IMG/VR virus record: IMGVR_UViG_3300025929_000015
Coordinates: 1 to 64,000 of that record
Reading direction: 5' to 3' (one strand)
Length of the DNA: 64,000 nucleotides
DNA from: a virus
The notes under the pieces were generated by a model. That model searched no databases, was not told where the DNA came from, and saw nothing but the letters and a program-made list of their open reading frames with translations. Every line of letters begins with the position of its first letter. Position 1 is the stretch's first letter. Below, one piece after another: positions 3,966-62,722 of this stretch. The translations under genes and the position numbers were made by a program.

Positions 3966-3991
3966 TTCATGCAGTGCGAGAGAGGTTACTC

Positions 3992-10104: not shown

Positions 10105-10118
10105 TCCTGCCCGCCTGA

Positions 10119-19390: not shown

Positions 19391-20441
19391 CCTGGCCCGA
19401 ATTTCAGTGTTGCTGATGTTTTTGCTGGGTGGTCTGAGGCCCTGACAGGGCTCGGTTGTGAAGTCCAAAGCTACAATCTAGATGATTTAGGACCGCCTCT
19501 CTTTCTACGGGAGCTGTCTGCTGCCGACCGGGGAGGAAGACGACGAGGGGCGCCCGGAGATCCACAAGGCGCTGACCAACGACCAGGCCATCCACGCCGC
19601 GCTGCAGGGCATGTCCCACGCGCTGTACACCTACTGGCCGGACGTGGTGCTGTTCATCTCCGCGTTCTGGGTCACCCCCGCGCTGCTGCATGTCATCCGG
19701 CAGCGCCGCCACAAGATCGTCATCTTGCACACCGAATGCCCCTACCAGGACGACTCCCAGCTGGAACGGGCCCAGTTCGCCGACATCAACCTGCTCAACG
19801 ACCCGGTCAGCATCGACCGGTACGCCCGGCTGGACGGCGACGCGGTGTACATGCCGCACGCCTACCGGCCCGCCGTGCACCACCCCCGCCCGGCCGGGAC
19901 CGGCGCGGACCCCGCGCTGGCCGCGGACCTGGCGTTCATCGGGACCGGCTTCAAGTCCCGGGTTGAGTTCTTCGAGGCGATGGACCTGACCGGGCTGGAC
20001 GTGCTGCTCGGCGGGATGTGGATGGACCTGGCCGAGGACTCGCCGCTGCGCACCTACCTCGGCCACGACACCGAGCTGTGCGTGCACAACGACGAGACCG
20101 CCATGATCTACCGCAACGCCCGGTGCGGGATCAACTTCTACCGCCGCGAATGGGAAGAAGGCATGGCCCCGGCCGATGGCTGGGCGATGGGGCCGCGCGA
20201 GGTGGAGATGGCGGCCAGCGAGCTGTTCTTCCTGCGCGACCCGCGCGGCGAAGGCGACGAGCTGTTCAAGGGGATCCTGCCCACCTTCAGCGGGCCCGCC
20301 GAGGCGTCCGCGCTGCTGCGCTGGTGGCTGGCCCGGGACGGACTGCGCGCAACGCGGGCCGGTCAGGCGCGGGCAGCGGTCGCGGACCGGACGTTCGCGA
20401 ACCACGCCCGGCGGCTGCTGGCGATGCTGGACGACCGGTAG
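19370..20441 (+). CDS. GT-B glycosyltransferase (CgeB/Glyco_trans_1_2-like), split by a frame disruption at 19487-19493
   Basis: RBS GGAGGTG, then MRILIVHPG...YNLDD in frame 0. Continues RLSFYG...DLAFIGT...PREVEMAA in the +1 frame from 19494; 354 aa if joined. Confidence 0.8.
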
Positions 20442-21737: not shown

Positions 21738-21766
21738 AGGGTAACCCATGCGCGAAGTTAGGACAA
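21738..21766 (-). promoter_or_regulatory. Putative promoter for units A1/A2
   Basis: Minus strand TTGTCC-N17-TACCCT; same -35 type as the promoter at 16534. Confidence 0.55.
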
Positions 21767-21767
21767 G

Positions 21768-22337
21768 GTGAGCACAGACAGCTACGACCTGGATCTCGGG
21801 TCGGAACACGACGCGATCGTCGTGCAGGCCAGCTCCGACCGGGAGCTGGCCGGTGAGGTCATCACGCCCGGTGAGAGCATCACTCTCGCCGGGCGTTCTT
21901 TCCGTGTCGCGGAGAAGGTCGGCCTGATGCCGCTGCTCAAGTTTTCTCATGCGGCCGGGCTCAAGACGACCGATGAGCGGGCGTACGTGGCGATGTACCA
22001 GATCCTGCGGGACGTGATCCGCGGGGCGGACCCGGCCTGCGGCCGGTGCGAGGGATGCAAGGAGGCGGCCGGGGAGCCGACCGCGCGGGACTGCCTGACC
22101 GCGGACGGCGGGGACTGGGACGCGTTCGAGGACTGGGCGGTGGAATGCAAGGCGGACGCCGATGAGCTGCTGGACGTGGTGTCGGAGGCGGTCAAGGTGA
22201 TCACTGCCCGCCCTACCAAGCCAGCTTCCGGCTCCTCGCCTTCGTCGCCGCGAACTTCGCGGACCTCGACGGGCAGCAAGTCCGCACGTGCGGGCGGGGC
22301 CTCCGGGGGCTCACGCCGCGGGAAGCGTGCAACCTAG
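21768..22337 (+). CDS. Tail assembly chaperone (short form)
   Basis: Lies between tube and TMP; ends RPT plus a Ser-rich tail, typical of G/GT genes. Confidence 0.75.
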   Translation: MSTDSYDLDLGSEHDAIVVQASSDRELAGEVITPGESITLAGRSFRVAEKVGLMPLLKFSHAAGLKTTDERAYVAMYQILRDVIRGADPACGRCEGCKEAAGEPTARDCLTADGGDWDAFEDWAVECKADADELLDVVSEAVKVITARPTKPASGSSPSSPRTSRTSTGSKSARAGGASGGSRRGKRAT

Positions 22338-22519
22338 CCTGGTCGGTGCTGGCCGAGGGCAAGGACGGCGAGGAGCGCCAGATGCTGGCTGACGAGCTGT
22401 ACGCGGGCGGGCGCGGCGAGGCCAGCTCGCACGACTGGGCGCTGGATCAGCTGCGCCGGGACATGGCGGCGCGCGGGATGGACATGGAGGGCGGTCATGG
22501 CGCAGATCCGGCTGGATGA
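22211..22519 (+). CDS. Tail assembly chaperone -1 frame extension (GT-type)
   Basis: Start-less -1 frame PYQASFRLLAFVAANFADLDG...; overlaps at CGC CCT ACC. Confidence 0.65.
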   Translation, partial: PYQASFRLLAFVAANFADLDGQQVRTCGRGLRGLTPREACNLAWSVLAEGKDGEERQMLADELYAGGRGEASSHDWALDQLRRDMAARGMDMEGGHGADPAG

Positions 22520-22874
22520 GCTGGCGATCCGGGAGATCCTGGACGACCCGGGCGGGGAGGTGGCGCTGTGGCTGGAGGAGCTGGCGTCGCGGGCGGCCGG
22601 GGTGGCCCGGTCGACGGTGCGGGTGCGGACCGGGGAGACGCTCAGCTCGATCGCGACAGAGATGCATTACGGCCCGGATTACCTCTCCAGCGAGGTGCAC
22701 GCGAACTACGCGGTGTTCTTCCTGGAGAAGGGCACCAAGCGGCACACGATCCGGGCGCACGGCAAGTACTCGCTGGCGCACGACAAGCTGGACTACTTCG
22801 GCCCGGTGGTGGACCACCCGGGCCAGCCCCCGCATCCGTTCCTGACCACGGGGCTGTGGTCGCTGGCGGAGTTA
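22497..22874 (+). CDS. HK97 gp10-like tail-completion protein; apparent end at TTA 22872-22874
   Basis: YAVFFLEKGTKRHTIR...VDHPGQPPHPFL is the usual C-terminal motif. The standard-code ORF runs on to 23006, antisense to small ORFs. Confidence 0.75.
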
Positions 22875-23166
22875 GCCGCCGCCGCGGGCGCACCGGGTGC
22901 ACAGTACGCACCCGGGACGGGCCGGGTAGACCTTGCACCGCCGGCAGGTCACGATGCCGCCGGGGCGGGCTGCCAGCCGGGGAGCTGGTCGTGCTCGATG
23001 CTGTGATCGGCGAGTTCCTGCCAGGACTCGTGCGGGCCTGGCTGCCCGTTGACAAGCTTCTCCACCGCTGCCCCTTCGCTGCATGAAAGCAGGCTGGGCC
23101 GGGGTCTGGAGTCCGCTGCTGTCCTTTTCCTGCTTTGACTGTACCCGAACCGGGAGGTGACCCGCC

Positions 23167-26100
23167 ATGGCGAAACGCCTAGCAGAGGCGTATGTCTCGA
23201 TCGAGGCGGACTCCCGGCTGTTCCGCGCCGAGGCGCTGGCCGGGCTGAAGAAGGCGCTGGCCGGGGTGGAGGCGAAGATCCCGCTGACCGCCGACACCAA
23301 GAGCGCGATCACCCAGATCGAGATCCTGAAGAAGCGGATGGAGGCACTCGGCAAGCAGCTGGCCGAGGTGAAGATCGGCGCGGACGGCAAGCCGCTCGAG
23401 GCGACGGTGCGGCGGCTGCAGCTGAAACTGCTGGAGGTCGCCAAGACGGTCGCGTCGGTGACCATCGGCGGGGACACCACCAAGATCGACGCGGCCATCG
23501 CCCGGTCGGAAGCCAGGCTGGTGGGGCTGTACCGGCAGGCGTCCGCGCTGAAGCTGGACGCGGACGAGAAGGCGCTGGCGGCGAAGATCGCCAAGGCGGA
23601 GGCAGAGCTGGCCGGGCTGGAGGCGCAGGCGTCCGGGCTGCAGCTGGACGCCGACGACAAGGCGCTGCAAGCGAAGCTTTTCAAAGAGTACGCGCAGCTC
23701 GAGACGCTGAACCGGAAGATGTCGAACCTGCAGCTGGACGCCGACGACAAGGCGCTGCTGTCGAAGATCGCCACGATGAAGGCGCAGATTGTCCATCTGG
23801 AAAACGCGATGGGCAAGATGAAGATCCCCATGGACATCGTCGCCGCGAAGCGGAAGGTCGATTCGCTGAAGGCCGATATCGCGGTGCTGAAGGACGAGGC
23901 GTCCAGGATCGAGCTGTCCGCCCACTACGAGGAGCTGCTCGCGGCGATCGACGCGTCTGAGGCGCGGATCGCGGTGCTGAAGTCGGATGCCGCCGACATC
24001 GAGCTGATCGCGAAGGCGGTCGCGCTGGACGCTGCGGTGGACGCGTCCCGGGCGAAGCTGAAGGTGCTGAAGGAAGACGGGCGGGTCGAGCTGGTCGCCC
24101 GGGCGGTCGAGCTGAACAAGACGATCGCCGTGGAAGAGGATCTGCTGCGGGGGCTGAAGCGGGAGGCGGCCGACATCAGGATCGCCGGGCCGGACACCGG
24201 CGAGCTGGCCGGCGCCGAGCTGTCCATGCTGCGGCTGGAGAAGGAGTTCGGGGACCTGCGCGGCAGTGCCGGGGCGCTGAACGTGGCACTGGTCACCGGC
24301 GGGCGGAACTTCGGCCGGTTCGGGCTGGGCGTGCTGACCGCGCGGGTGGCGCTGTTCGGCGGGCTGAGCGCGGTCTCGGGCTGGCACCTGGCGCTGGACG
24401 GGGTCGTGGAGACGCTGGCCGTGGTGGTCCCGGCGCTGGTGACCGCGGCCGCGGGCCTGGCCGCGTTCGGGATCGCGGGCGCCGACGCGGCCCGCGCGGT
24501 GTATCAGCGGCTGCAGAACATCCACACGGTCGCCGACGCGACCAACAAGACGATCGCGCCGATGACCGGGAACCTGGAGGCGCTGCACGCCCAGGTCCGC
24601 CCGCAGGTGTGGCAGCTGTACGGGGACGCGATCGCGATCGCGGGCACCAAGACGGGGCTGTTCAACCAGCTGGCGGTCAGCACCGGCGGGGTGATCGACC
24701 GGTTCGCCGCGAAGATCACCGTGCTGGCCACCACCAGCGGCACGGGGCTGTCGAACTTCCTGAAAGTGGGCCAGCGGGACCTGGCCGAGTTCGGGCGGAT
24801 CGCGGCGTCGCTGGGCAGCGCGTTCGGCAAGCTGATCCAGGTCACCCAGCAGACCCACATCGCCGAGTACCTGCTGAACATCGTCGGCGCGGCCGCGAAG
24901 GCGTTCGACATCTTCACCAGGCTGCCGCTGCCGCTGCTGGCCACGGTGGTGGCGATCCACGGCATCTACCTGTGGTCCGGGCTGGCAGCCTCGGGCATCA
25001 TCGGGCTGCTGCGCCCGCTGGAGCGGATGACCGCCGCGGCGGCCGGGGCGAAGCTGGCCGGCACCGCGGTCAAGGACCTGGCCGACGCGGGGAACGCCTC
25101 GAAGTTCCGGACGCTGGGCGCCACGCTCTCCGACCTGGGCACGAACCTCAAGGCGCTGCCGGGCCGGGTGGTGACGCTGGGCAAGGCGTTCCTCGGGCTG
25201 TTCGCGAACGGGTGGACGTGGGCGGTGGTCGGCGTGGTCCTGCTGGCCGGCCTGGCGATCGCGCTGTCGCGGACCAAGAGCGCCACCGACCGGTTCATCG
25301 ACTCGCTGAACACCATGGTCTCCCGCGCGTCGGTGTTCACGGTCATCAATACCCTCGGCGCGGGCCTGATCCAGACCAACACCCGGCTGGCCGCCGCGAA
25401 CTCGGCGGTCGCGGCCGGGCTGAAGGCGATGCAGGACCGGATGCACTCGGCGTCCTCCGAGGCCGTGCAGTACGGCTCCAACCAGAACCAGCTGGTCAAC
25501 GACACGCGCGCCCTGGCCGCCGAGCATGACAAGCTGGCCGGCCAGCTGACCTTGGTCACCGGGCGGCTGACGTACCTGACCCAGGCGTTCGGCACCCAGG
25601 GACTGACCGGGGCGATGGCGCTGGCGCACCTGGCCGGGGTGAACCTGAACCAGCTGCTGTCCACCGACAACAAGGTGTGGGCGGCAGCGGTCCAGCAGAT
25701 CGCCGGGGTGGTGCAGGGCTACGCCAACATGGGGCAGGGCGCTACCCAGCTCGCCAACGACATCAACGTGCTGACCGTCGTCCAGTCCGACCAGCTGAAA
25801 AACGTGCAGACGCTGAACAGCGCGTTCGACGAGTTCACCAAGATCGTGTCCGGGCCGGTCACCGGATTCCTGACCCTGGCCAACACGCTGAAGCGGTTCG
25901 GCTCCGACGCGTCCGTGGCCGGCGCGCAGATGTCCGGGCTGGGCACCGGGATGACCGGGGTGTCCAAGAAGGTCACCGACGCGTCGCTGCAGCTGCAGAC
26001 CGACTTCCAGGACACGTTCAGCGCGGCCACCCAGATGGCCGACGCGATGCGGCTGACCGGGACCGCCTCGGCCCAGCAGGTGTCCGCCATCAGGAACGTC

Positions 26101-29100
26101 GTGCAGGTGATGATCCCGATGGCGGGGTCCAACAAGGCGGCCGCGGCGGAGGTCTCCGCGCTGGCGCAGGAGGCCGGCGGCCCTGCCACCACGAACCTGA
26201 AGGAACTCGCCAAGTGGGCCGGGCACACCAAGGACCCGCTGTCCGCGGCGCAGAAGGCGGCCCAGGACGCGGCCATCTCCTTCTACAACATGTCCCTGGA
26301 CGCGCAGAAGCTCGGCACCACCTTGTCGCAGGACCTGACCAAGGACATGGCGGCCGCGGTGGAGAACGCGGTCGGGCTGCAGGGCGCGATGAACAAGTTC
26401 GCGCTGGACCTGAAGAACGCGGGCACGTCGATCGTGACGACCAACAGCGACCGCAAGGCGCTGATCGCCGACCTGGCGCTGGTCGGCATCAAGGGCAAGC
26501 AGGCCGACGCGATCGTCAACGCGATCAGCGGGACGCTGAAAAGCTCCAAGGGCCCGGTCAGCGACGCGGCCGTGGCGTTCGAGAATTTCGCCATCCACGG
26601 GCTGGGGCTGAGCCAGGCCAAGGCCGATGCGCTGTGGAAGACGCTCGCGGCGTCGGACCTGCCCGCGCTGGCCGCCAAGGCGGACACCACCCGGGCGAAG
26701 TTCGACGACCTGGCGGTCAAGGGCCTGAACCTGACCCAGAACCAGGCCGACGCGCTGTGGAAGCACCTGCGGATGCAGTACCTGGACCAGATCGCCACCA
26801 AGACCGACACGTCCAAGACCAAGTTCGAGCAGCTCGCCAAGGACGGCCTGGACCTGACCAAGGGCGCCGCCGACGCGCTGTGGACCAAGCTGCGCCAGCA
26901 GTACCTGGACACGCTGGCGAACAAGTCCGACATGACCAAGGCCAAGTTCGAGCAGCTCGCCTCGCAGATGGGCATCACCCGGGGCGAGGCGGACAAGCTG
27001 TGGGCGTCGCTGCGCCGGGTCGCGTCCGGCAGCCCGTACGTGGCCAAGACGATCGTGGAGGCGTCCGGCAGCGGGCAGATCACCATCCAGGGCTCGGGGT
27101 GGGCGACCGGGTCGGGCAACGTCCGGTTCCACGCCGCGCGCGGCGCCTACATCAACGCCGGGTCCGGGCCGACCGCCGACGACGTGCCCGCGATGCTGTC
27201 CAAGGGGGAGCTGGTCGTCCCCACCCACATGGTCAAGGCCGGGGCGGTCGATCACCTGCGCGGCAAGCTGCCCGGGTTCGCCTCCGGCGGCCTGGTCGGC
27301 CTCGCGGACCAGGCCCCCGGCCTGCCCCCCCAGGCCACCAGGATCGCCGGGAACCTGGCCACCAAGGCGGTCAGCACCTTCATCAACAAGACGATGGCCG
27401 CGATCAAGGCCGAGGTGAACAGCAACGACGCGCTGGCCGGGTCCGGCCCGGCCGTGGTGTCCTACGCGCGCAGCTTCCTCGGCAAGATCCCGTACGTCTT
27501 CGGCGGTAACAGCCTGTCCAGCGGCATCGACTGCTCCGGGTTCACCCAGGCGGTGTACGGTCACTTCGGCATTCACGCGCCGCGCACGTCCGAGTCGCAG
27601 TTCGCCTGGGCGACCAAGTCCGCCCCGACCCCCGGCGGGCTGGCGTTCTACGTGAGCCCGGCGGGCGGGCCCCCGCCCGGTCACGTCGCCATCGTGCAGG
27701 ACGCCAAGAGCGTCATCTCCCAGGGCGGCGGGATGGGCCCGCAGATCGAGTCGCTGCGGTTCCTGCCGCTGATGGGTACCGGGGTGCCCAAGGGCGGCTT
27801 CCCGGCCGCCGCGGGCGGGGGCGGCAACCTCCCCATCGGGCCCGGGACCGGGGGGCGCTTTTCCTGGGGGCAGCTGGAGCAGCTGTGGGTCCGGGCCGGG
27901 GGCCGCGGCGGCGCCGCCGCGGCCATGGCCTCGATTGCCATCGCCGAGTCGGGGGGCGACCCGCGGGCGCGTAACCCCAGCGGGGCCAGCGGCCTCTGGC
28001 AGATCCTCGGGCTGCCGTTCCCCGGGAACCCGTTCGACCCGATGACCAACGCCCGGATGGCGGTCGCCAAGTACAACGCGAACGGGTTCTACCCGTGGAT
28101 CTCCGACCCGGTCGCGGCCCGGCTGATCGCCGCCGGCATTACCCGGGCCAAGGGCGGCCTGGTCGGGTACGCGGCCGGGGGGACGGCCGGCGGGCTGCGC
28201 GCCCAGCTGGCCGCCGAGCAGCGGGGCGAGCAGGCCAAGTACTTCGGGCTGGAGCACAGTTTCGCGATCGGGCCGGCTAAGTACCGCACCGCGCTGACCC
28301 GGCAGGAGCTGGCTACCCTGGCCCGCAACCAGCAGCTCGAGGTGGCCGCCTACCGGGGGCTGACCGGTCCGGGCCTGACCACCGCGGCGCTGCACCACCT
28401 GGGCGCGACCGCGCGGGCAGTGCAGCGGACCGCGTCGGACCAGGAGCTGTCCCGGCCGGCGTCCCAGGGCGGGCACCCGCTGTTCGCCGCGGACCTGCGC
28501 AAGTACCTGGGCCAGCTGTCCGCGACGGCCAGCGGCACCGTGCCCGCGGGCGGCGGCGGCACGGGCGGCGGCACGGGCGGCAGCGGCACGCCCGGCGGGA
28601 AGATCACCAGCGCCCGGCAGCTGCGCGCCCAGCTGGCCGCCGAGCAGCGGGGCGAGCAGGCCAAGTACTTCGGGCTGGAGCACAGTTTCGCGATCGGGCC
28701 GGCCAAGTACCGCACCAAGGCCGTCAAGGCGGAACTGGCCGCGCTGACCCGCAACCAGGCCGCCGAGCTGGCCGACTACGCCCGGGTGTCCGGGTCCGGC
28801 GAGCTGGCCGATAACGTCCGGCTGTCCGGGCTGAACATGGCGAACCTCAAGCACCTGTCCCGGACGGCGGACGCGGAATCGAAGACCGCGGCCGGCTTCT
28901 GGCTGTCGCACAAGCCCGGCGGTCACCCGCTGTTCGCGAAAGACCTGCGCAAGTTCCTGGCGCAGATCTCCGCGACCGTGGCAGCGGGCGTGACCGCCGC
29001 GGAGACCGGCGTCCCGGGCCTGGGCCTGCCGCCGGTCACCCACACTTACGGCGGCGACGTCGGCAACCGGATCGCCGCGTTCTTGTCCGCGGTGATGGCC

Positions 29101-29343
29101 CCGTTCGCCGGCGGCGGCCTGGTCAAGAGCTTCGACTCCGGCGGCTGGCTGTCCCCGGGGCTGACCATGGCCTATAACGGGACGGGCAAGGCCGAGCGGG
29201 TCGGCGGCCCGCAGGCCGTCACCGTGGTCTTCGACGTAACCCCGTCCGGGAGCGCCTTCGACCAGTTCCTGCTGGCGTGGCTCAAGAAGAACGTCAAGAT
29301 CCGGGGCGGCGGTAACGTGCAGACAGCGTTCGGAGCGCACTGA
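23167..29343 (+). CDS. Tape measure protein with NlpC/P60 and lytic transglycosylase domains
   Basis: 2058 aa, helical. D.VPAMLS.GE motif; PYVFGG...DCSGF...GHV (NlpC/P60); AESGG...ASGLWQI (SLT-like); FDSGG...NGTGKAERV. Confidence 0.93.
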   Translation: MAKRLAEAYVSIEADSRLFRAEALAGLKKALAGVEAKIPLTADTKSAITQIEILKKRMEALGKQLAEVKIGADGKPLEATVRRLQLKLLEVAKTVASVTIGGDTTKIDAAIARSEARLVGLYRQASALKLDADEKALAAKIAKAEAELAGLEAQASGLQLDADDKALQAKLFKEYAQLETLNRKMSNLQLDADDKALLSKIATMKAQIVHLENAMGKMKIPMDIVAAKRKVDSLKADIAVLKDEASRIELSAHYEELLAAIDASEARIAVLKSDAADIELIAKAVALDAAVDASRAKLKVLKEDGRVELVARAVELNKTIAVEEDLLRGLKREAADIRIAGPDTGELAGAELSMLRLEKEFGDLRGSAGALNVALVTGGRNFGRFGLGVLTARVALFGGLSAVSGWHLALDGVVETLAVVVPALVTAAAGLAAFGIAGADAARAVYQRLQNIHTVADATNKTIAPMTGNLEALHAQVRPQVWQLYGDAIAIAGTKTGLFNQLAVSTGGVIDRFAAKITVLATTSGTGLSNFLKVGQRDLAEFGRIAASLGSAFGKLIQVTQQTHIAEYLLNIVGAAAKAFDIFTRLPLPLLATVVAIHGIYLWSGLAASGIIGLLRPLERMTAAAAGAKLAGTAVKDLADAGNASKFRTLGATLSDLGTNLKALPGRVVTLGKAFLGLFANGWTWAVVGVVLLAGLAIALSRTKSATDRFIDSLNTMVSRASVFTVINTLGAGLIQTNTRLAAANSAVAAGLKAMQDRMHSASSEAVQYGSNQNQLVNDTRALAAEHDKLAGQLTLVTGRLTYLTQAFGTQGLTGAMALAHLAGVNLNQLLSTDNKVWAAAVQQIAGVVQGYANMGQGATQLANDINVLTVVQSDQLKNVQTLNSAFDEFTKIVSGPVTGFLTLANTLKRFGSDASVAGAQMSGLGTGMTGVSKKVTDASLQLQTDFQDTFSAATQMADAMRLTGTASAQQVSAIRNVVQVMIPMAGSNKAAAAEVSALAQEAGGPATTNLKELAKWAGHTKDPLSAAQKAAQDAAISFYNMSLDAQKLGTTLSQDLTKDMAAAVENAVGLQGAMNKFALDLKNAGTSIVTTNSDRKALIADLALVGIKGKQADAIVNAISGTLKSSKGPVSDAAVAFENFAIHGLGLSQAKADALWKTLAASDLPALAAKADTTRAKFDDLAVKGLNLTQNQADALWKHLRMQYLDQIATKTDTSKTKFEQLAKDGLDLTKGAADALWTKLRQQYLDTLANKSDMTKAKFEQLASQMGITRGEADKLWASLRRVASGSPYVAKTIVEASGSGQITIQGSGWATGSGNVRFHAARGAYINAGSGPTADDVPAMLSKGELVVPTHMVKAGAVDHLRGKLPGFASGGLVGLADQAPGLPPQATRIAGNLATKAVSTFINKTMAAIKAEVNSNDALAGSGPAVVSYARSFLGKIPYVFGGNSLSSGIDCSGFTQAVYGHFGIHAPRTSESQFAWATKSAPTPGGLAFYVSPAGGPPPGHVAIVQDAKSVISQGGGMGPQIESLRFLPLMGTGVPKGGFPAAAGGGGNLPIGPGTGGRFSWGQLEQLWVRAGGRGGAAAAMASIAIAESGGDPRARNPSGASGLWQILGLPFPGNPFDPMTNARMAVAKYNANGFYPWISDPVAARLIAAGITRAKGGLVGYAAGGTAGGLRAQLAAEQRGEQAKYFGLEHSFAIGPAKYRTALTRQELATLARNQQLEVAAYRGLTGPGLTTAALHHLGATARAVQRTASDQELSRPASQGGHPLFAADLRKYLGQLSATASGTVPAGGGGTGGGTGGSGTPGGKITSARQLRAQLAAEQRGEQAKYFGLEHSFAIGPAKYRTKAVKAELAALTRNQAAELADYARVSGSGELADNVRLSGLNMANLKHLSRTADAESKTAAGFWLSHKPGGHPLFAKDLRKFLAQISATVAAGVTAAETGVPGLGLPPVTHTYGGDVGNRIAAFLSAVMAPFAGGGLVKSFDSGGWLSPGLTMAYNGTGKAERVGGPQAVTVVFDVTPSGSAFDQFLLAWLKKNVKIRGGGNVQTAFGAH

Positions 29344-32300
29344 TGGTCCAGCTGGTCAACGACTTCGCCGAGGGCACCAACGGCACCGCCCTGACGACCG
29401 GCAACACGGCCGGGTCCGGGGAGAACGCCTTCGACGTGGTCTCGGCCGGGGCCGGCACCACGCTGGCCTTCAGCAATACGGCCGTCGCGCACGGCACGCT
29501 GGCCGCCCAGGTCGCCACCGGCGGCACGGCGGCGGGCGCCTATATGGGCTGGTCTACCTCGCTCGGCGCGCAGGCCGTCCATTACGGGCGGATCTACGTC
29601 AACGTGTCGGGGACGCCCGCGGCCAGCGACGCGTTCGTCCAGTTCCAGTCCGGGTCGGGCGTCTTCGCCGGCGGGCTGCAGCTGACCACCGGCCGCCAGG
29701 TCGCCATCCAGCTGACCAGCCTCGCTATCCAGGCCACGATGTCCACGGTGCTGGCGGTCGGGACCTGGTACCGGATCGAGTGGAAGCTGGTGTCGTCGGC
29801 GTCCGGCGCCGGGCAGGTCACCGTCTCCCTCTACTCCGGTGATGCGGCGACCGCGACCGAGACCTACACCAGCGCGGCGACCCTGACGATAGGCGGGGCG
29901 GCCACCGACGCGGTGCTGGTCGGCTGGACCGGGGCGCACGCCGGCCAGCCCGCGGTCTACGTCGACGACGTGGCCCTGTCCACCACCGGGCCCCTGGGGC
30001 CCTGGTCCGGGCCGTCGGTGACCTCCCCGGTTATCGAGGTCTCCTCGTTCGGCACGTTCCCCGGGGTCAATCCCGGCGACATGATCAGCACCGTCACCGT
30101 GGCGGTCACCGAGCACCAGTCCAGCACCACCCAGCCGCCGTGCACGTTCGAGCTGTGGGACTACTCAGGCGGAACCCCGGCGCAGATCGGCTCGACCCAG
30201 AACGGAACCGCGTCTACCAGCCCGTCGAATGTGTCCAGCGCCGTGTTCACCGGGGTCACCTACCCGATGCTGGCGACCTTGCGGGTCCGGGTCTACGGCC
30301 ATTCCACCGCAACAGGCCAGTCCGAGTCGGTGGACAGCGTGTCGCTGCTGGTCAGCGCGGTGCCGCCGGAGACCTCCCCGTTCCTGGAGGTCTCCGCGTT
30401 CGGCACGTTCGCCGGGGTCCATCCCGGCGACACGATCAACTCGGTGACCGTCACGGTGACCGAGCACCAGTCCAGCATCGCCCAGCCGCCGTGCACGTTC
30501 GAGCTGTGGGATTACAGCGGCACCCCGGCCCAGATCGGCACCACCCAGACCGGCACCGCGTCCACCAGTGCCGGCAATGCCAGCACCGCGACCTTCACCG
30601 GGGTTACCTACCCCATGCTGGCCACGCTGCGGGTGCGGGTGTACGGCCACGGCTCCGCGGCGGGCCAGGTCGAGTCGGTGGACAGCGTGTCGCTGTCGGT
30701 CAGCGCCACGCCGGGGACGGGAGGGACCGCCACCCCGGCCACGCTGGCAGTCACCACCGCCCGGCCGGCCCCGGTCGTCACCGGCGGGAACGTCACCGCC
30801 GCCCCGGCCACGCTGGCGGTCACCACTGCCGAGCCGGTCCCGGCCGTCACCGGCGGCAACGTCGTCGTCACCCCGGCGACGCTGGCGGTCACCACCGCCG
30901 TGCCGCGCCCGGTCGTGACGGTGCCCGTCTTCGTGCCGACGTACTTCCCCGCGGTCGTGCTGGGCATCAAGGTGGAACTGCAGATCGCCGGGAACTGGAC
31001 CGACATCACCCGGTGGGCCTACCAGCGCAACCCGCTGCAGATCACCGGGATGGGCCGGGCGGACTGGACGTCCACCATGCAGGCGTCCCAGCTGACCATG
31101 ACGCTGAACAACCGGGACGGCCGGTTCACCCCGAAGAACAGCGCCGGGGCGTACTGGCCGAACATCACCCGGAACGTCCCGGTCCGGGTGTCGGTGACCA
31201 CCAAGTCCAGCACCGGGGTCACCTACAGCGGGTTCCGGTTCTTCGGGGAGGTCACCGAGTGGCCGCCGCGCTGGGACCCGTCGGGGCACGACGTCACCGT
31301 CGAGGTGGTGGCGTCGGGGATCTGGCGGCGGCTGTCCCAGCTGCAGACCACGCTGGGCTCGGCGTTCCGCCGGTACAACGTGAACACCGCGGCCGCCACC
31401 GGGATGCAGGCGTACTGGCCGTGCGAGGACGGGACCGGGTCGGGCCAGCTGGTCCCGTACGGGCCGCCGGCCGCGAACGCGGTCCAGCAGTTCGTCACCG
31501 GCCAGGCGGGCCTGTCGCTGACGGCCAACTCCGATTTCAGCGGCAGCGACGCGATCTGCGTGCTGAACGCCGCGGCCATCACCGCGACCGTCCCGGCCGG
31601 GGGGGTCGCGTCGAACAACGTCACCCGGTTCGTCATCTCGGTGCCCGCGGCCGGCGACTCGGCGTCCGGGACCACGAACTGGAACCTGATCGAGATCGAC
31701 TCAGGCGGCACGGTCGCGAAATTCGAGGTGTACCTGAACGCTACCGGGACGCTGCTGATGCAGCTGCGCAATTCCGCCGGGACCGTGATCGCGTCCGGGG
31801 TGACGACCACGAACGTCAAGGGCGTCCCGTACCTGGTCTCATGCGAGCTGACGCCCAGCGGCGGCAGCGTGGCGTTCGCGCTGCGGATCATCAAGCAGAA
31901 CGCCGGCGGGATCACCGAGAGCATGCTCGGCACGGTCGGCGGGCTGGTGGGCGCGGTCAGCAAGGTGGTGGTCTCCCGGGCGTTCGCGCTGAACGACACC
32001 GCGTTCGGGCACCTGTCGGTGTCCTACGGCGCGCCGACCTCGCTGGTCCAGGCAGCCGGGGCGCTGGCCGGCTACATCGGGGAGACGGCGATGGACCGGT
32101 TCACCCGGCTGTGCGGCGAGATGGGCATCGCCACCGAGACGATCGGGACGGCCGCCTCGACCGCGCCGCTGGGGCCGCAGGTGGACGACACCCTGGCGAA
32201 CGTGCTGCAGTCCATCGAGGACACCGACTGCGGGCTGCTGTATGAGTCGCGCAGCCAGTTCGGGCTGGGCTACCGGTCGAACGCGTCGATGGCGAACCAG

Positions 32301-34034
32301 GCCGCCGCGGTCGTGCTGAACTACACCGCGCCGGTGCTGGACTCCTCGCTGGCCCCGGTCTATGACGACCAGCTGACCCGCAACAACGTCACCGTGTCGA
32401 ACTGGACCGGGTACACCCAGCAGGCCATCTTGACGACCGGGCCGATGAGCGTGCTGAACCCGCCGGCCGGGGTCGGGAACGGGTACGCCTACCAGCGTGC
32501 CGTGACGGCCGCGGCCGACTCCCAGCTGCCCGGGATCGCGAATTTCCTGCTGAACCTCGGGTCGGCCGATGAGATCCGGTTCCCGGTCATCACCGTGAAG
32601 ATGGTCCGCACCCAGGCCGCGCCGCTGCTCGCGGCGATCCCCGCGCTGCGGATCGGGGACTACCTGCAGATCACCAACCCGCCGCCGTTCCTGCCCCAGA
32701 CCACGATCCGGCAGCTGGCCTGGGGGTATGCCGAGACGCTGAACGCCAAGGAGTGGACGTTCAGCTTCAACACGGTGCCCGAGTCGCCGTGGGAGGTCGG
32801 ATTCTCCCCCGGGACCATCCAGACCGCGCAGATCCCCGGGGGCAGCCCGGTCACCTCGCAGGCCCCCGGCAGCGGGTTCGGCTCGCTGGCGAACGGGTCG
32901 ATCACCCCGGCGATGCTCAACTCCGGCATCACCATCCACACCCTCGGCGGCAACGCGGTCACCATCTCGTTCACCGCGCCGGCCAACCCCAACACCGGCG
33001 ACATCTGGATCGCCGCGGCGACCGGGCTGCTGTCGCAGTGGAACGGCACGGCGTGGATCCCGTTCAAGTTCGACGGGTCGGTGACCATCCAGGGCAACAC
33101 GATCACCGCCGGCCAGATCGCCGCGGGGACCATCGTGGCGTCCAACATCGCGGCCGGGACGATCACCGCGGCGCTGCTGGCCGCGGGCATCATCGTCGCG
33201 GGCATCGTGGACGCCACCACCATCACCGGGTCGGTGGTGCAGACTGCCGCCGCGGCGCCGTGCGTCATCATGGACGGCACCCGCGACTCCATCTTCGGCT
33301 ACAACGCGGCCACCGGGCTGCTGTTCAGCCTGGCCGGGGCGGGCGGGACCGATTTCTTCGGCCACACCTACCCGCAGGGCCTGTACTCCCAGCAGATGAC
33401 CCTGGCCAACCAGGTTGTCGCGCCCGCCTCGTTCGGCAATGCCAGCGTGTTCTACTCCTCGGTGACCGGGCGTCCCCGCTACCTGAACTCGGCGGGCTCG
33501 GACGCGGTGCTGGAGCGGTCCTCGGTGAACACGGCGCAGTTCACGGTCGGCAACACGGCGACGCCCGGGCCGATCTCCGCGCTGATGAGCATCTTCCCCA
33601 ACGAGGGCGAGCAGTCCAGCGAGTACGAAATCGAGTGCTCCGGTTCGGCGCACTTCGGCACGGCGGCGAACCACAACCTGGACTTCCGGCTGTTCAAGGA
33701 CGGATCGGCGTACGCCCCGGGCGGCACGCAGCTGAACGCGATGACGCTGGACAACAGCATTGTCGGCACCGGGATCTCCATCGCGTACACGGTGACCTTC
33801 CGGGTGACCTACATCGGGTCCAGCCTGGCGAACCTGGAGGCAGTGGGGTTCTGGCGGGACCAGAACGCCACGACGCTGATGGCCAGCAACACCGGGACCA
33901 TGGGAGGTAATGCCCAGAACCTGGCCTGGGACCCCACGATCAGCCATACGCTGGAGATCCGGGCATCGTGGGGAACGACGCAGGCCGGGCAGACGCTGAC
34001 GACGTACCGGACCAAGATGGCAAGGAGAATGTGA
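29343..34034 (+). CDS. Large tail tip/baseplate-fiber fusion protein
   Basis: Follows TMP; VELQIAGNWTDIT...TLNNRDGRFTP hub-like motif, YWPCEDG and ITA..IAAGTI repeats. Confidence 0.8.
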   Translation: MVQLVNDFAEGTNGTALTTGNTAGSGENAFDVVSAGAGTTLAFSNTAVAHGTLAAQVATGGTAAGAYMGWSTSLGAQAVHYGRIYVNVSGTPAASDAFVQFQSGSGVFAGGLQLTTGRQVAIQLTSLAIQATMSTVLAVGTWYRIEWKLVSSASGAGQVTVSLYSGDAATATETYTSAATLTIGGAATDAVLVGWTGAHAGQPAVYVDDVALSTTGPLGPWSGPSVTSPVIEVSSFGTFPGVNPGDMISTVTVAVTEHQSSTTQPPCTFELWDYSGGTPAQIGSTQNGTASTSPSNVSSAVFTGVTYPMLATLRVRVYGHSTATGQSESVDSVSLLVSAVPPETSPFLEVSAFGTFAGVHPGDTINSVTVTVTEHQSSIAQPPCTFELWDYSGTPAQIGTTQTGTASTSAGNASTATFTGVTYPMLATLRVRVYGHGSAAGQVESVDSVSLSVSATPGTGGTATPATLAVTTARPAPVVTGGNVTAAPATLAVTTAEPVPAVTGGNVVVTPATLAVTTAVPRPVVTVPVFVPTYFPAVVLGIKVELQIAGNWTDITRWAYQRNPLQITGMGRADWTSTMQASQLTMTLNNRDGRFTPKNSAGAYWPNITRNVPVRVSVTTKSSTGVTYSGFRFFGEVTEWPPRWDPSGHDVTVEVVASGIWRRLSQLQTTLGSAFRRYNVNTAAATGMQAYWPCEDGTGSGQLVPYGPPAANAVQQFVTGQAGLSLTANSDFSGSDAICVLNAAAITATVPAGGVASNNVTRFVISVPAAGDSASGTTNWNLIEIDSGGTVAKFEVYLNATGTLLMQLRNSAGTVIASGVTTTNVKGVPYLVSCELTPSGGSVAFALRIIKQNAGGITESMLGTVGGLVGAVSKVVVSRAFALNDTAFGHLSVSYGAPTSLVQAAGALAGYIGETAMDRFTRLCGEMGIATETIGTAASTAPLGPQVDDTLANVLQSIEDTDCGLLYESRSQFGLGYRSNASMANQAAAVVLNYTAPVLDSSLAPVYDDQLTRNNVTVSNWTGYTQQAILTTGPMSVLNPPAGVGNGYAYQRAVTAAADSQLPGIANFLLNLGSADEIRFPVITVKMVRTQAAPLLAAIPALRIGDYLQITNPPPFLPQTTIRQLAWGYAETLNAKEWTFSFNTVPESPWEVGFSPGTIQTAQIPGGSPVTSQAPGSGFGSLANGSITPAMLNSGITIHTLGGNAVTISFTAPANPNTGDIWIAAATGLLSQWNGTAWIPFKFDGSVTIQGNTITAGQIAAGTIVASNIAAGTITAALLAAGIIVAGIVDATTITGSVVQTAAAAPCVIMDGTRDSIFGYNAATGLLFSLAGAGGTDFFGHTYPQGLYSQQMTLANQVVAPASFGNASVFYSSVTGRPRYLNSAGSDAVLERSSVNTAQFTVGNTATPGPISALMSIFPNEGEQSSEYEIECSGSAHFGTAANHNLDFRLFKDGSAYAPGGTQLNAMTLDNSIVGTGISIAYTVTFRVTYIGSSLANLEAVGFWRDQNATTLMASNTGTMGGNAQNLAWDPTISHTLEIRASWGTTQAGQTLTTYRTKMARRM

Positions 34035-34037
34035 CCC

Positions 34038-34454
34038 GTGACCGCGAACCTGCCGGTGCTGGACTCCACCATGCACGTGGCCGGCGTCATGTACGCCTGC
34101 ACGTTCGGGCTGACCACGGCCAGCAGCGGCCTGGTCACGTTCCAGGTGCCGGCCCCGGTGCAGTTCGCGTTCACCTTCGACACCGGCCGCACCCAGCCGG
34201 ACCCGGCGGTGAGCGTATACGACGTCACCACGGACACGTCCTGGTTCAACCAGGCCGCGACCGAGGCCGCGATCAAGTCCGCGCTGGACACGATCTGCAC
34301 GCAGATCGCCGCGATGCTCGGCGTCACCCAGGCCGCAGTCCAGGCCACCGTCACGGTCAAGCGGGCGTGGCGGGTCGCAGCCAACCAGGAAGGGGACGCG
34401 GCGCCGGTGCAGGTCCCGCCGTTCATCTACTCCGAGGCCATGGCCTACCCGTAA
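34038..34454 (+). CDS. Hypothetical tail-associated protein
   Basis: Operon context; ends with TAA 34452-34454. Confidence 0.6.
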   Translation: MTANLPVLDSTMHVAGVMYACTFGLTTASSGLVTFQVPAPVQFAFTFDTGRTQPDPAVSVYDVTTDTSWFNQAATEAAIKSALDTICTQIAAMLGVTQAAVQATVTVKRAWRVAANQEGDAAPVQVPPFIYSEAMAYP

Positions 34455-35015
34455 CTTCTTCAGCACGAACGCGAGCACCGAGCCCAGCGCGATCAGCATC
34501 GAGGCGATCATGATGATCACGACAGCGGTCTGGCTGAACCGCTCCCGGGCGGTGCTCACGTCCCCGGCGTGCTCCTTGATCCCGCGGGTCAGCGACTCGA
34601 TCGCGGTCAGCCGGGTCCGCACGTCGTCGATCTTTCCGGTCATCGCGTCGTGCGCGGTGCTGTACTCGGCCCGGGGCAGGTACATCTTGGTCTGGTCGGT
34701 CAGCGCGGCCCGGAACTCGTTGACGCCCTCGAACCGTTTCTCGCTGGCGGTCTCGGCCTTGGTGACGGCCTTCTCCGCGGCCGCCAGGGCCGCGGTGACG
34801 GCACGGCCGGCGTCGTCCAGCCGCTGGTTGATCAGCCGGTCCAGCGCGTCGATCTTATCGCCGAGGATCCGGTCCAGCACGGCCAGCTCGCGCCGGTAGC
34901 TGACCGTGGCCTTGTCGACCGCTTCGGTGGTCAGCTTGGTGGGGTCCGGGCGGGGCACCAGGTCGGCGCGTTCCCAGCCGCCGGTACTGGTGCCGGCCGG
35001 CTCTGGCTGGGTCAC
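34452..35015 (-). CDS. Coiled-coil protein with C-terminal TM anchor (187 aa); ends ...VLKK followed by TTA
   Basis: RBS GGAGG plus GTG 35015; strong GC3 bias. No standard stop until 31839. Confidence 0.75.
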
Positions 35016-35054
35016 CCCTCCAGTTAACCATCCCCCGACTGCAGGAGAGCCCGT

Positions 35055-35681
35055 ATGCCCGACGATCCGAGGCTGGCCCCGCTCGGTAAGTTCACGCCCG
35101 AAGGTGTCCTGACGCCGGGATACGGCGAGAGCTACTTGTTTTTCGTGGGTCGCGATGATGTTCACCAGATCCTGCTGTACCTGATCACCCATGAAACCCG
35201 CCGGTTCCGCCTGAATATGTTCGGCTACGATGACGCTCCTCTTAATGCCGCGATTCTGGTGCTGATGAAGAACCCCAACGTAGCGGTGCAGTGCACCCTG
35301 GACAGGTCTCAGGCGGGCGGGGCGACTGAGGGGAAGATCCTCGCGGCGGACGTGGCGAACAACCCGGATTTCTATAACAGCTTCGCCGTCGGCATGTCGG
35401 CTACGCACCAGATCAGTCACACGAAGGGCGGGGTGCTGTCGGCGCAGGGCCTGTGGTTCGAGGGCAGTACCAACTGGTCGGCGTCGGGAGAGGGTACCGG
35501 CATCAAGCTCGACCCAAGGGCCGTTCCGGCGCCTGGTTTCCGGTCTCAGAACAATACACTGCTGGTCAGCGCTAACGCGGTCAACCTGATCCAGTTTTCC
35601 GACCGACTTGACGTGGAGCACTTGATCGCGATTCAGCAGCAGGCGGCGAGGGCGGCGAAAGAGGTCGCGGCGGCTAAGTTA
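35055..35681 (+). CDS. Phospholipase D-superfamily (Nuc-like) protein; apparent end at TTA 35679-35681
   Basis: HTKGGVL...EGSTNWS HKD-type motif and QNN. Confidence 0.75.
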
Positions 35682-35685
35682 CCGG

Positions 35686-35716
35686 CTACGATAGCACCAC
35701 CGTGGTGCTATCGTAG
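35686..35716. promoter_or_regulatory. Perfect 31-bp palindrome, likely operator/promoter of the Arc-like gene
   Basis: ctacgatagcaccac-c-gtggtgctatcgtag; overlaps a TATCGT -10 element 6 nt before ATG 35721 (leaderless). Confidence 0.75.
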
Positions 35717-35720
35717 TGTA

Positions 35721-35963
35721 ATGAGTGACGACGAAACGCGCATGACGCTCCGATTGCCTGCCCGCATGCGTGAGCAGCTAGGGGCAACTGCTTCACAGAA
35801 TCGCCGTAGTGTCCACGCTCAGGTGCTCATCTACATCGAGCTGGGCCTGGCTATCGGCGACACCCGCGTTGAGCTGGAGCTGGCGGCATTGCACAATCCC
35901 GCGATCCGGGCAGCGGTGAAAGAAGCGAAGTCAGGCGGGGGAGCCGGTCCCCGCCCGCGATGA
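35721..35963 (+). CDS. Arc-family ribbon-helix-helix regulator
   Basis: RMTLRLPARMREQL...A.QNRRS.HAQV motif. Confidence 0.8.
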   Translation: MSDDETRMTLRLPARMREQLGATASQNRRSVHAQVLIYIELGLAIGDTRVELELAALHNPAIRAAVKEAKSGGGAGPRPR

Positions 35964-40597: not shown

Positions 40598-41710
40598 TCA
40601 GATGATGTCCTGGAGCAGCGCGATCATCTCGGCGTTGGTGCCTTTCCAGTCCTGGCCGCACATCAGCCCGAATCCTTCCCGGTTCCCGTCCGGGGCCTTG
40701 AGCACGCCGGTGCCGGGCTCGGTGCCGCGGACCGTCTGGGCGGACAGCGACCACCAGCACCAGCTGACCCCGCGGGCGCCGGCCCAGGCCAGGAAGTTCG
40801 CCATCCAGCCGCTGGTCATCGCCGCGCGGCTGGCCAGGTCCTGGCCGAACTCCCCGACCCAGACCGGCGCGGTCCCGGACAGCCGCAGGTAGCCGCCCTG
40901 GCGGTCCATCTGGTCGAAGTAGGCGGACGTCGCCTGCCCGCCCGGGTGGAACCAGGAGTAGTCGTGCAGGGACGCGACCACCCCGGGACCGGTGACCGGG
41001 TGCGCGGCCCAGCCGGTCAGGTCGGTGGCGTAGGACAGGCCCTCGCAGAACACCAGGCAGCCGGGGGCGGTGAACCGGATCCGGTCGGCGGTGGCCTGGT
41101 ACATCCGCCGGAAGTCGGTGGCGGGGTTGCCGTCTCCCCAGGTCGGGTGCACGGTGACCCCGCCGATCACCGCGCTGCGCGGCTCGTTGCGCAGGTCGTA
41201 GCCGACCCGCGGGTTGGCGCCGAACGCGGCGGCGACCGTGTCCCAGCAGGCGGTGAACACCGCGGCGGGCCAGTTGTCGTTATGCCACAAGCCGTTGACG
41301 TCGGCGTCGCTGCAGCACCAGCCCGGGTAGGACAGGTGGTTGTTGACGATGACGTACAGCCCGGCGGCGGTCATGTCGGCGACCAGCGCCTGCATCAGCT
41401 GCCACGGGGTCAGCCCGGCCAGGTCGGGGTTGGCCGCGACGCGGGCCAGCGGGACCGGGCTGGTGAACGGGGTGCCGTCGCGGTTGAGCAGGGTGCCGGT
41501 GGCGAACGGGAACCGGACGTGATTCATCCCCCAGCTCACGATCCGGCCGATGATCTCACTGCGCGGCAGCTTGTCCAGGCCCGCGGCGACACGGTTGTCC
41601 TGGTGCGCGCCGGGCCAGTTCACTCCGCACAGCCGGTACGGCTGCCCGTCGGCGCCGGTGATGGCGGCGCCGGAGACGGCCAGCGGGAACGCGCTCGCGG
41701 GGATGATCAT
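40598..41710 (-). CDS. GH5 glycoside hydrolase (cellulase-like)
   Basis: GVNWPG, NHVRFP, YDLRNEP (acid/base), SLHDY and WVGEFG (nucleophile). Confidence 0.9.
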   Translation of the reverse strand: MIIPASAFPLAVSGAAITGADGQPYRLCGVNWPGAHQDNRVAAGLDKLPRSEIIGRIVSWGMNHVRFPFATGTLLNRDGTPFTSPVPLARVAANPDLAGLTPWQLMQALVADMTAAGLYVIVNNHLSYPGWCCSDADVNGLWHNDNWPAAVFTACWDTVAAAFGANPRVGYDLRNEPRSAVIGGVTVHPTWGDGNPATDFRRMYQATADRIRFTAPGCLVFCEGLSYATDLTGWAAHPVTGPGVVASLHDYSWFHPGGQATSAYFDQMDRQGGYLRLSGTAPVWVGEFGQDLASRAAMTSGWMANFLAWAGARGVSWCWWSLSAQTVRGTEPGTGVLKAPDGNREGFGLMCGQDWKGTNAEMIALLQDII

Positions 41711-41958
41711 GACTCCTCCGTCTGCGCCGCCAGCCGCCGGGAGACGCCGCACGGCCCGGCGGCTGCCGGCTCGCTTATCGTATCACGCTGTCCAAGTGTC
41801 ACTGCACGATCCTCGCGCCGCACCGGCGGCACCGCCACACCTCGTAGGTGACCCCGCTCTTGGTCACCGTGCCGACTTTGGCCAGCTTCCTGCGCGGGTG
41901 CGGGCATTCTTCCTGCGCGGGCGGGGGCTTTTTCTTCTTCGGCATCAGCGTTCCTGCG

Positions 41959-47819: not shown

Positions 47820-47825
47820 GGCCGC

Positions 47826-55153: not shown

Positions 55154-55870
55154 ATGCGTGACCTGGCGGAGGCGTGCGAGGAGCTGCTCACCCAGCTCCA
55201 GGTGTTCGACCTCGGCGCGGCTGACGACGACCGGGCCGACGCGGGCCTGGTCACGGTAACGTGCCTGATCGCCGAGGCGGACACCGACCCGGGGCTGCGC
55301 CGCTCCGGGCTGCTGGAATCCCGTCCGCCGTGGAACGCCAACGTGGCCGGCGCCTACCTGTCCGCCCACCAGCTGGTGCGCCGCCTGGAGGCGTCGCTGC
55401 GGCTGGCGGTGGCCGGGCACCCGGGCCGGGCGCGCGGCGGGTCGGATGCGAATACCGCCGAGGCCATCCGGGCGATCGCCCGGATGGCCACCGCGGCCAG
55501 CGTGATCCCCACCGCCGAGCCGGTCTCCCGGTCCGACCCGGACGGGCGCAAGCTGACCGTGGCGGAACTGGCCGCGATCGTGCTGGACCGCGCGATCCGC
55601 GTCATCGGCCAGCTGCCCGCCATCGACGAGTTCCCCAAGTGGGAGAAGATCCGGGCCGGCCCGGACGGGCTGCCGCCGCGCTGCCCGAACTGCGGTACGT
55701 TCTCGCTGCGGGTCGCGGTGCAGTCCGGGGTGGTGGTGTGCGTGCTGCCGTCCTGCGCCGACCTGGACGGGAACAGTCCCCCGCAGGCGCACCTGGACGT
55801 CTCGCGGCTGGACGGCAGCCCGGCGCTGGTGTGGCGGGACGGCACCGTGCAGTGCCCGCCGGCCGCGTTA
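55154..55870 (+). CDS. Actinophage Zn-ribbon protein (238 aa); apparent end at TTA 55868-55870
   Basis: SRPPWN and RCPNCGTFSLR...VVC..PSC motifs. After TTA the frame is antisense to other genes. Confidence 0.65.
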
Positions 55871-56032
55871 CGGCAGGTCCCGGAGCGGGATCCAGCCGTC
55901 TGGGTAGTCACCCCGGCTGATGGCCTGGGCCAGGCAGATGGCCGCGAACGGCCTGTACCCGCGCGCCCGGCCCGTGACTACCGCCAGGGCCTCGTCCGGA
56001 TCTTCGTCCAGTTCCAGGAGAGGGTCTTTCAT
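55868..56032 (-). CDS. 54-aa hypothetical protein
   Basis: MKDPLLELDEDP...RDLP*; last ORF of the minus-strand run. Confidence 0.5.
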   Translation of the reverse strand: MKDPLLELDEDPDEALAVVTGRARGYRPFAAICLAQAISRGDYPDGWIPLRDLP

Positions 56033-62539: not shown

Positions 62540-62722
62540 TAACTCCTTTTCTCCGCTGCCGCGCTTGCGCCGTTTCTCGGCGGTATCAGCGCACCTGTCG
62601 CTGCAGAACCTGCTGCGCGCCAGCACTGCGAAATATGGCTTCCCGCAGCACTCGCATCTCTTCTCGATAAGTTTCTTACGGCGGGTATATGTCGCGCCTT
62701 TCTGAGGCCCGCGTTTTCCCAT
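62540..62722 (-). CDS. 60-aa treble-clef Zn finger; apparent end at TTA
   Basis: CECCGKPY...RFCSDRC. Confidence 0.7.

Follow-up and report, generated by a model that had tools for sequence, protein, structure and literature searches.

RESULTS

The focal gene and its protein family

The DNA analysed here (the window) comprises the first 64 kb of one IMG/VR virus record of 99,376 bp, IMGVR_UViG_3300025929_000015 (record label G000), which has a G+C content of 69.5%, is classed as linear and has an estimated completeness of 83%. The focal gene, on the minus strand at 34455-35015, encodes a membrane protein of 187 amino acids (aa), and its reading frame runs from two lysine codons directly into a TTA triplet; on the plus strand, the same three bases are the TAA stop codon of a convergent gene (Table 1). 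A preliminary description of the window had pointed to this membrane-protein gene as lacking a standard stop codon and ending on its neighbour's TAA, and all of the elements that it listed were recovered.

The focal gene is real. The G+C contents of its three codon positions (GC1/2/3) are 0.66/0.48/0.95, and a six-frame Viterbi segmentation called a minus-strand coding segment at the gene in both of its runs, one penalising TTA and the other treating it as neutral. A search of 5.8 billion proteins returned 341 homologues at E<=1e-3 (best identity 50%, mostly 120-205 aa), and a scan of IMG/VR with peptide patterns of the conserved motif returned 341 viral loci. The window protein keeps the columns that are invariant in the family alignment (alignment A1), including a strongly conserved central motif, and has the single C-terminal hydrophobic helix. 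AlphaFold2 predicted long helices at residues 30-111 and 115-150 with a predicted local distance difference test score (pLDDT) >90 and, at lower confidence, the membrane helix at residues 157-187. The coiled coil, the transmembrane helix and the Lys-Lys followed by TTA of the preliminary description were likewise present, hydrophobic residues 164-185 being followed by Lys-Lys and by TTA at 34454-34452.

The same description had assigned the gene a ribosome-binding site and a GTG start codon, of which the latter alone held. The N-termini of the homologues (MT.PE...) line up with the GTG at 35015-35013 in alignment A1. The Shine-Dalgarno (SD)-like GGAGGG at 35021-35016 lies only 0-1 nucleotides (nt) from the GTG, too close to be a canonical ribosome-binding site, and the start call therefore rests on the homologue N-termini.

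No family was found for the focal protein in Pfam, PHROGs or NCBIfam; in the ESM Atlas it matched unnamed viral clusters only, and a Foldseek search against BFVD returned nothing below E = 0.1. Because the gene neighbours of family members differ between phages (capsid, glycosyltransferase and HNH genes), the function cannot be deduced from context, and the product can only be called a mobile accessory tail-anchored membrane protein.

Sequence at the junction

Contigs from public sequencing runs were aligned to 33800-35400; these are contigs and not raw reads, which leaves room for rare variants. The junction is spanned with 0 differences by a 4.5-kb contig of X1, which may be the source sample and has a depth of about 15, and by one of 566 nt from another sample, X3. 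A contig of X5, from a 2025 soil study, covers 34443-34593 identically, reaching only 9 bases to one side of the triplet and not bridging the junction. The focal sequence was identical in samples from 2017 and 2025, and no indels, joints or alternative letters at the junction were reported in the contigs. The junction sequence is right and is not an assembly error. The preliminary description had raised a TAA or TAG at this place, or a segment in inverted orientation, as grounds for doubt; the contigs from another sample show the same triplet and the same orientation. An inversion of 34455-35015, which would give KKPSS-TAA, was also considered and rejected, since the start context would be lost and the contigs do not support it.

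The natural end of the focal protein

Under the standard code (table 11) the focal frame stays open to 31839, and its next in-frame stop lies 870-871 codons past the TTA, in agreement with the continuation of about 870 codons antisense to the tail-tip gene given in the preliminary description. The frame is open for so long because it lies codon-on-codon antisense to two plus-strand genes with a GC3 of 0.96: a stop can arise in such a frame only opposite a TTA, CTA or TCA codon of the sense gene. Right after 34454 the GC1/2/3 values flip to 0.96/0.51/0.61, an antisense pattern, and AlphaFold2 gave the first 51 residues beyond Lys-Lys low confidence (pLDDT about 45-53).

A homologue length of about 187 aa had been expected, and the closest relatives measure 175-205 aa. 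Those ending in Lys-Lys stop exactly at the TTA slot of the window; the window protein alone runs on. The DNA of approximately 100 family loci (80 viral and 18 from bacterial genomes) was examined, and nearly all end in TAA, TAG or TGA, 0-9 residues past the membrane helix, with two relatives reading AAG AAG TAA. The focal protein fits this pattern of a single C-terminal helix 0-9 residues from the end only if it ends at the TTA. Judged from these sequence comparisons, the natural end of the family is at the Lys-Lys/TTA position. The minus strand reads AAG AAG TTA CGG GTA GGC at the junction, giving TAC GGG TAG in the +1 frame, and no terminator-like site was found downstream of the focal gene.

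In locus L081, a relative of the convergent partner gene (68% identical) ends at the same residues (AYP) with TAG, and the stop position of the plus-strand gene is thus ancestral. The TGA of a different small reverse-oriented membrane gene lies 3 bases after that TAG; the slot behind the tail gene is thus a site of exchange for reverse-oriented membrane genes. Packing in the window has reached one shared triplet.

TTA usage in the phage and in related records

The leucine codons among 26,615 codons were CTG (1789), CTC (310), TTG (46), CTT (22), CTA (18) and TTA (6). No internal in-frame TTA was found in approximately 27,000 codons of the record, the lower-GC3 open reading frames (ORFs), such as HNH genes, included. 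The six in-frame TTA sites listed in the preliminary description (19487, 22872, 34452, 35679, 55868 and 62540) were all verified in the sequence, and all six in-frame TTA of the window stand at a protein end or a frame break. At 22872, 34452 and 55868 the TTA is in each case a convergent ORF's TAA read from the opposite strand, and those at 35679 and 62540 each divide two in-frame genes. A further three TTA, at 3986, 74196 and 35025, fall within coding segments or on their borders and shortly precede start codons. The TTA at 35679 is followed immediately by a perfect 15-bp hairpin (35682-35725; fold z-score -3.7), which lies ahead of the ATG of the Arc/RHH-like gene and could be an operator or a terminator.

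TGA accounts for 83 of the 114 stop codons of the record (73%) and TAA for 16 (14%); all three abutting convergent pairs use TAA. The only transfer RNA (tRNA) gene of the record is for tRNA-Met, no tRNA-Leu being encoded, and the related record G002 (119 kb) has tRNA-Met and tRNA-Pro only. Neither G002 nor a second related record, G001 (27.7 kb), contains an internal TTA, and TTA stands at 3' ends lacking a stop in two cases in G002 and one in G001. As approximately 10 ordinary internal TTA occur in 42,000 codons of 44 unrelated high-GC phage or prophage loci, the pattern belongs to this lineage and does not simply follow from high G+C content.

Some candidates were set aside. The segmentation had flagged ends without a stop at 47520 and 51281, which belong to ordinary genes with lower-GC3 tails, and a TTA match in L001 is located beyond a real TGA. 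At 9574-10504 of G001 (L124), an 80-codon ORF ends in ...TAT TTA and a 230-codon ORF continues there in the +1 frame, which may represent a +1 frameshift at the TTA or two coupled genes.

Other genes with TTA in homologous stop slots

Besides the focal family, three gene families have TTA at, or one to two codons before, the TAA/TAG/TGA slot of their relatives. The first is gene A, whose five relatives (P0124-P0128, 127-138 aa) end one to two residues from its TTA. Its next in-frame stop lies 44 codons on, and its own database entry bears a 44-residue tail. The approximately 290 nt between gene A and the tape measure gene (22875-23166) show no plus-strand coding signal and hold two small minus-strand ORFs, one of which encodes a Cys-rich 26-residue peptide ending on the TAA shared with the gene A TTA.

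In the second family, most of the 167 relatives of gene B are 216-238 aa long and end at the slot (...VQ, ...APR or similar). In the DNA of metagenome relatives the slot reads TAA, TAG or TGA in ten cases and TTA in three (L083, L087 and L097). The next stops in these three and in the window lie 27-165 codons on, and in L083, L087 and L097 each TTA coincides with the TAA of a reverse-strand frame that is open and whose end is plausible for a small protein. All eight extended gene-B proteins in alignment A3 (the window and seven others), together with the DNA-derived L083 and L097, begin their extension with Leu; the extensions are mutually dissimilar and not conserved. The TTA-ended lineages retain all invariant residues at 44-77% identity and are thus under selection as working genes.

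The third family is that of the Cas4-like exonuclease, which ends ...APKEGE-TAA in G000. Its relative in G002 (72% identical) reads ...APKKD-TTA, one codon earlier, where the similarity is lost, and this TTA is the TAA of a converging gene. Every DNA-verified abutting case has TTA, with three of three pairs in G000 and four of four in the gene-B family. The preliminary description regarded the focal gene as the strongest single case for termination at TTA; that place belongs to the gene-B family, in which TTA recurs in several lineages.

Table 1. Positions of the focal gene, of TTA sites and of other features in the window
Feature	Position	Strand	Remarks
Focal coding sequence	34455..35015	-	187-aa tail-anchored coiled-coil membrane protein of an uncharacterised phage family
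GTG start codon	35013..35015	-	Sequence read; N-termini of homologues align
Family-defining motif AEKAV.KAE.A.EKRF..VNEFR..L.DQ	34692..34778	-	Conserved; residues 80-108, invariant or near-invariant A1 columns
C-terminal transmembrane helix	34461..34526	-	Residues 164-185, then KK; hydropathy and AlphaFold2 helix 157-187
Shared triplet	34452..34454	both	TAA stop of plus-strand gene; minus-frame TTA directly after KK; proposed end of minus-strand gene
Convergent partner gene	34038..34454	+	138 aa; owns the TAA; GC3 0.96
Open non-coding continuation of the minus frame	31839..34451	-	Antisense composition (GC1/2/3 0.96/0.5/0.6), codon-on-codon opposite tail genes
Gene A	22497-22871	+	TTA 22872..22874 in stop slot, equal to TAA of minus-strand ORF
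Gene B	55154-55867	+	TTA 55868..55870 in stop slot, equal to TAA of minus-strand ORF 55868-56032
TTA between two in-frame genes	35679..35681	+	208-aa upstream ORF / Arc/RHH-like gene
TTA (TTAA) between AAGGAG site and ATG of next in-frame gene	62540..62542	-	Sequence read
TTA (TTAG) at frame break in glycosyltransferase-like gene	19487..19489	+	Sequence read
Tape measure gene	23167-29343	+	NlpC/P60 and lysozyme-like (SLT) domains
Small separate NlpC/P60 gene	38500-38967		
FDXHR zinc-binding gene (PF24071)	20290-20691 (gene proper 20440-20691)	-	Runs 49 codons into antisense of glycosyltransferase-like gene 19518-20441; TGA end

Genomic setting and host type

Beyond approximately 40 kb the genes of the record are mainly on the minus strand; up to this point run the structural genes, on the plus strand. 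They include a 2,058-aa tape measure protein with NlpC/P60 and SLT domains and a 1,563-aa tail protein, followed by peptidase, transglycosylase and NlpC/P60 genes of the lysis type. A gene of the GH5 cellulase family (40601-41713, minus strand; Pfam E = 6e-33) adjoins the lysis region. Directly upstream of the tape measure gene, at 21762-22489 (plus strand), the coding signal moves to the -1 frame near 22220 with no stop, which looks like the usual G/GT programmed frameshift of tail assembly chaperones. At 47137-47825 (minus strand), the high-GC3 part of a gene is followed by a tail of lower GC3 in which SSQQI(D/H)AASNA motifs are repeated. No tyrosine integrase was found in the 99-kb record.

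The virus is an uncultured, high-GC, actinophage-like phage, and several features point to an actinomycete-type host: the FDXHR zinc-binding gene, a gene with a DUF397-like motif (spotted by eye only), matches to actinophages and the presence of prophage copies of the focal family in Micromonospora. The actinophage matches are distant ones of the Cas4, tail-chaperone and minor-tail proteins, which point to phages of Arthrobacter, Gordonia and Curtobacterium. In tblastn searches of GenBank phages, Cas4 alone gave matches, again distant (27-30%) and to Arthrobacter and Gordonia phages, and none was found for the focal protein, the protein of 19518-20438 or gene B. Gene B was not found in 4 genomes carrying the focal family or in 401 sampled genomes of the same class, and a scan for it across genome contigs gave no match.

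DISCUSSION

The position of TTA in the focal gene and its relatives suggests, with a probability that we put at approximately 0.68, that during phage expression this codon is not read as leucine and serves as the terminator of the focal gene. Translation would then end at the UUA directly after Lys-Lys, where we infer that ribosomes stop and release the protein. Since TAA and TTA are reverse complements, one triplet can serve a converging pair of genes, the plus-strand gene ending on TAA and the minus-strand gene on TTA. The idea of termination at TTA, put forward in the preliminary description, gains comparative support from the lack of internal TTA, from the three further gene families and from the two related records, and the focal gene clearly exemplifies a placing of TTA in stop slots that extends across the lineage.

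Two versions of the mechanism may be distinguished. As a tentative proposal, UUA would be a true termination signal, read by a release factor in a host without tRNA-Leu(UAA), as in organelles with altered release factor 2 (RF2) or RF1. The host would have to supply this factor, because the phage record has no release-factor-like gene. The missing in-frame back-up stops (the next lie 44 to 871 codons on) fit an efficient terminator. On the same tentative footing, TTA would be a genuine fourth stop codon of a bacterium-phage system, that is, a sense-to-stop change in a free-living bacterial lineage and its phages. A slightly less probable version is that UUA is a non-decodable or only conditionally decodable 'hungry' codon of the bldA type, at which release would occur via a +1 slip onto the nearby TAG (giving ...KKYG), peptidyl-tRNA drop-off or ribosome rescue.

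Several observations weigh against termination at TTA. The RF-1 domain (PF00472) was not found anywhere in the 99-kb record, which is 83% complete. A GC3 near 0.95 predicts few TTA anyway, so that zero internal TTA is weak when taken alone. Among the approximately 100 family loci with DNA, none besides the focal gene ends on TTA, and for this gene taken alone a single stop-loss event is possible. The RNA after the focal TTA shows no unusual structure (z +0.6), and there is no in-frame back-up stop nearby. The FDXHR protein is approximately 40 residues longer than its homologues with no TTA involved; over-long convergent ORFs thus arise in this phage for other reasons too.

Stop loss that has been tolerated is an improbable explanation. 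It would make TTA the mere shadow of the neighbour's TAA: the codon would be read as leucine, translation would run on into the antisense of the tail genes as far as the end of the mRNA, and the gene would be effectively dead or strongly damped, its product either bearing a long junk tail or being tagged by transfer-messenger RNA (tmRNA) and degraded. Besides the solitary TTA end in the focal family and the FDXHR case, this explanation agrees with the lack of a terminator-like site downstream and with the location of a reverse-oriented accessory gene in a slot that holds another small membrane gene in L081, a difference that makes a recombination junction clipping the focal stop plausible. However, it leaves the TTA in every DNA-verified stop slot across four families unaccounted for. 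A mutated stop gives TTA in at most approximately 1/7 of the sense outcomes, which makes random loss a poor explanation. Furthermore, an abutting partner stop should mostly be TGA (73% of stops), placing TCA in the slot, yet TTA is seen and TGA partners were never found in such junctions. The selection on the TTA-ended gene-B lineages and the unchanged focal sequence between the 2017 and 2025 samples also argue against it.

A programmed +1 frameshift at a slow UUA, with TTA as the shift signal and not the terminator, is still less probable. With Lys-tRNA in the P site, TAC would be read next and TAG reached two codons later, as the +1 frame of the junction allows, so that the protein would end ...KKYG. 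In the window, six of six TTA have a +1-frame stop within 0-12 codons, vs 18% after ordinary stops, and a UUA followed by G or A, which creates an overlapping +1 stop, has been discussed for Streptomyces adpA (PMC10732093). Over 12 cases, however, a +1 stop lies within 12 codons in ten against approximately 60% expected, and the enrichment was dropped as not significant; at G002:87143 the +1 stop is 21 codons away. AAG, moreover, offers no good re-pairing in the +1 frame, and neither a structure nor an SD-like element that could stimulate a shift is present at the focal site. It is extremely improbable that a real stop was lost through misassembly, a sequencing error or a segment placed in the wrong orientation: although a metagenome assembly was compared with contigs and not raw reads, the X1 and X3 contigs cross the junction unchanged, the X5 triplet is identical, no indels or joints were reported, and two other sites, as well as other records, show this geometry again.

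TTA in phage stop slots is a variant of two themes, the organellar UUA stop and UUA recoding in actinophages. The mitochondrial code with UUA as a stop is NCBI table 23. UUA is a termination codon in labyrinthulean (Thraustochytrium) mitochondria, pedinoflagellate plastids and Marsupiomonadales mitochondria, where its use as a stop came together with substitutions in RF2 or RF1 (PMC12574857). As in these organelles, the codon is missing inside genes and found only at the stop positions of homologues, the conclusion is drawn from C-terminal alignment, and the genome in question encodes no cognate tRNA. In contrast, the RF2 or RF1 substitutions have been identified in organelles, as at Ser204 in the codon-recognition region of organellar RF2, whereas the present case concerns a bacteriophage, in which only approximately 4% of genes end on TTA and the mechanism may be conditional or based on stalling. 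The human mitochondrial genes MT-CO1 and MT-ND6 end on AGA/AGG, sense codons without a cognate tRNA, for which a -1 slip onto a standard stop and direct reading by a specialised release factor are debated. They share with the focal gene a sense codon in the stop slot of otherwise normal genes, but dedicated release-factor paralogues exist there and another codon family is concerned.

In Streptomyces, the sole UUA-reading tRNA (bldA) is non-functional in vegetative cells (PMC10732093). According to a proposal in the same study, UUA can cause bypassing, frameshift-termination or drop-off, both in adpA and in the terminase gene of phage phiHau3; the large terminase of phiHau3 has a UUA inside an essential gene, and translation resumes after a gap of 7-10 nt (PMC10732093 and the work of Smith et al. 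cited there). The present case resembles these in its actinophage-like setting, in a very rare UUA at functionally special positions, and in a ribosome that, at UUA without a charged tRNA, would do something other than insert leucine. The glycosyltransferase-like gene split by GAT TTA G GAC at 19481-19496 (plus strand), with a UUA plus a short gap, may fit the phiHau3 pattern. Bypass of the phiHau3 type was not found at the focal site, where the family is complete at Lys-Lys and the downstream composition is antisense. Unlike in phiHau3, nothing follows the focal UUA, which replaces the stop of a complete protein, and the sharing of a triplet with a convergent TAA is absent from the phiHau3 and bldA model. 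A 2026 survey described a weak enrichment of UUA at 3' ends in some actinomycete genera (PMC13072593). In the literature searched, organelles were the only case found of UUA as a stop, and Streptomyces and phiHau3 the only ones of recoding linked to UUA.

Without a usable stop in the standard code, the focal gene resembles non-stop mRNAs, and ribosomes on it would need rescue. Rescue of such mRNAs by tmRNA-SmpB normally tags and destroys the product, whereas the conserved TTA-ended genes argue for working proteins. A tmRNA-SmpB system has been described in Streptomyces (PMC2635970). An A/T-rich codon driven out of use under GC pressure also recalls Micrococcus luteus and the codon-capture model. 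In this model, GC pressure empties such a codon, its tRNA is lost and a new meaning becomes possible. In M. luteus, Kano, Osawa and colleagues reportedly observed that unassigned codons stall translation without release; use of unassigned codons at gene ends, as suggested here, is not known to have been described there.

The apparently broken focal membrane protein is, from the sequence comparisons, probably rescued as functional. If TTA is a terminator in this lineage, standard annotation mis-calls TTA-ended genes: the public protein entries of genes A and B would bear junk tails of 44 and 134 residues, respectively, and the focal gene would be miscalled as a 1,260-aa antisense ORF or missed. 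A fourth stop codon would escape the gene callers and code-prediction tools now in use. A simple marker by which such phages and their hosts could be sought is provided by TTA in homologous stop slots, along with convergent genes sharing a TAA/TTA triplet. It would further follow that convergent genes can legitimately share one TAA/TTA triplet and that some high-GC soil bacteria depart from table 11 in their code or decoding capacity. Sense-to-stop changes have so far been published, in the literature searched, only for organelles, and the finding bears on both the codon-capture model and bldA-type regulation.

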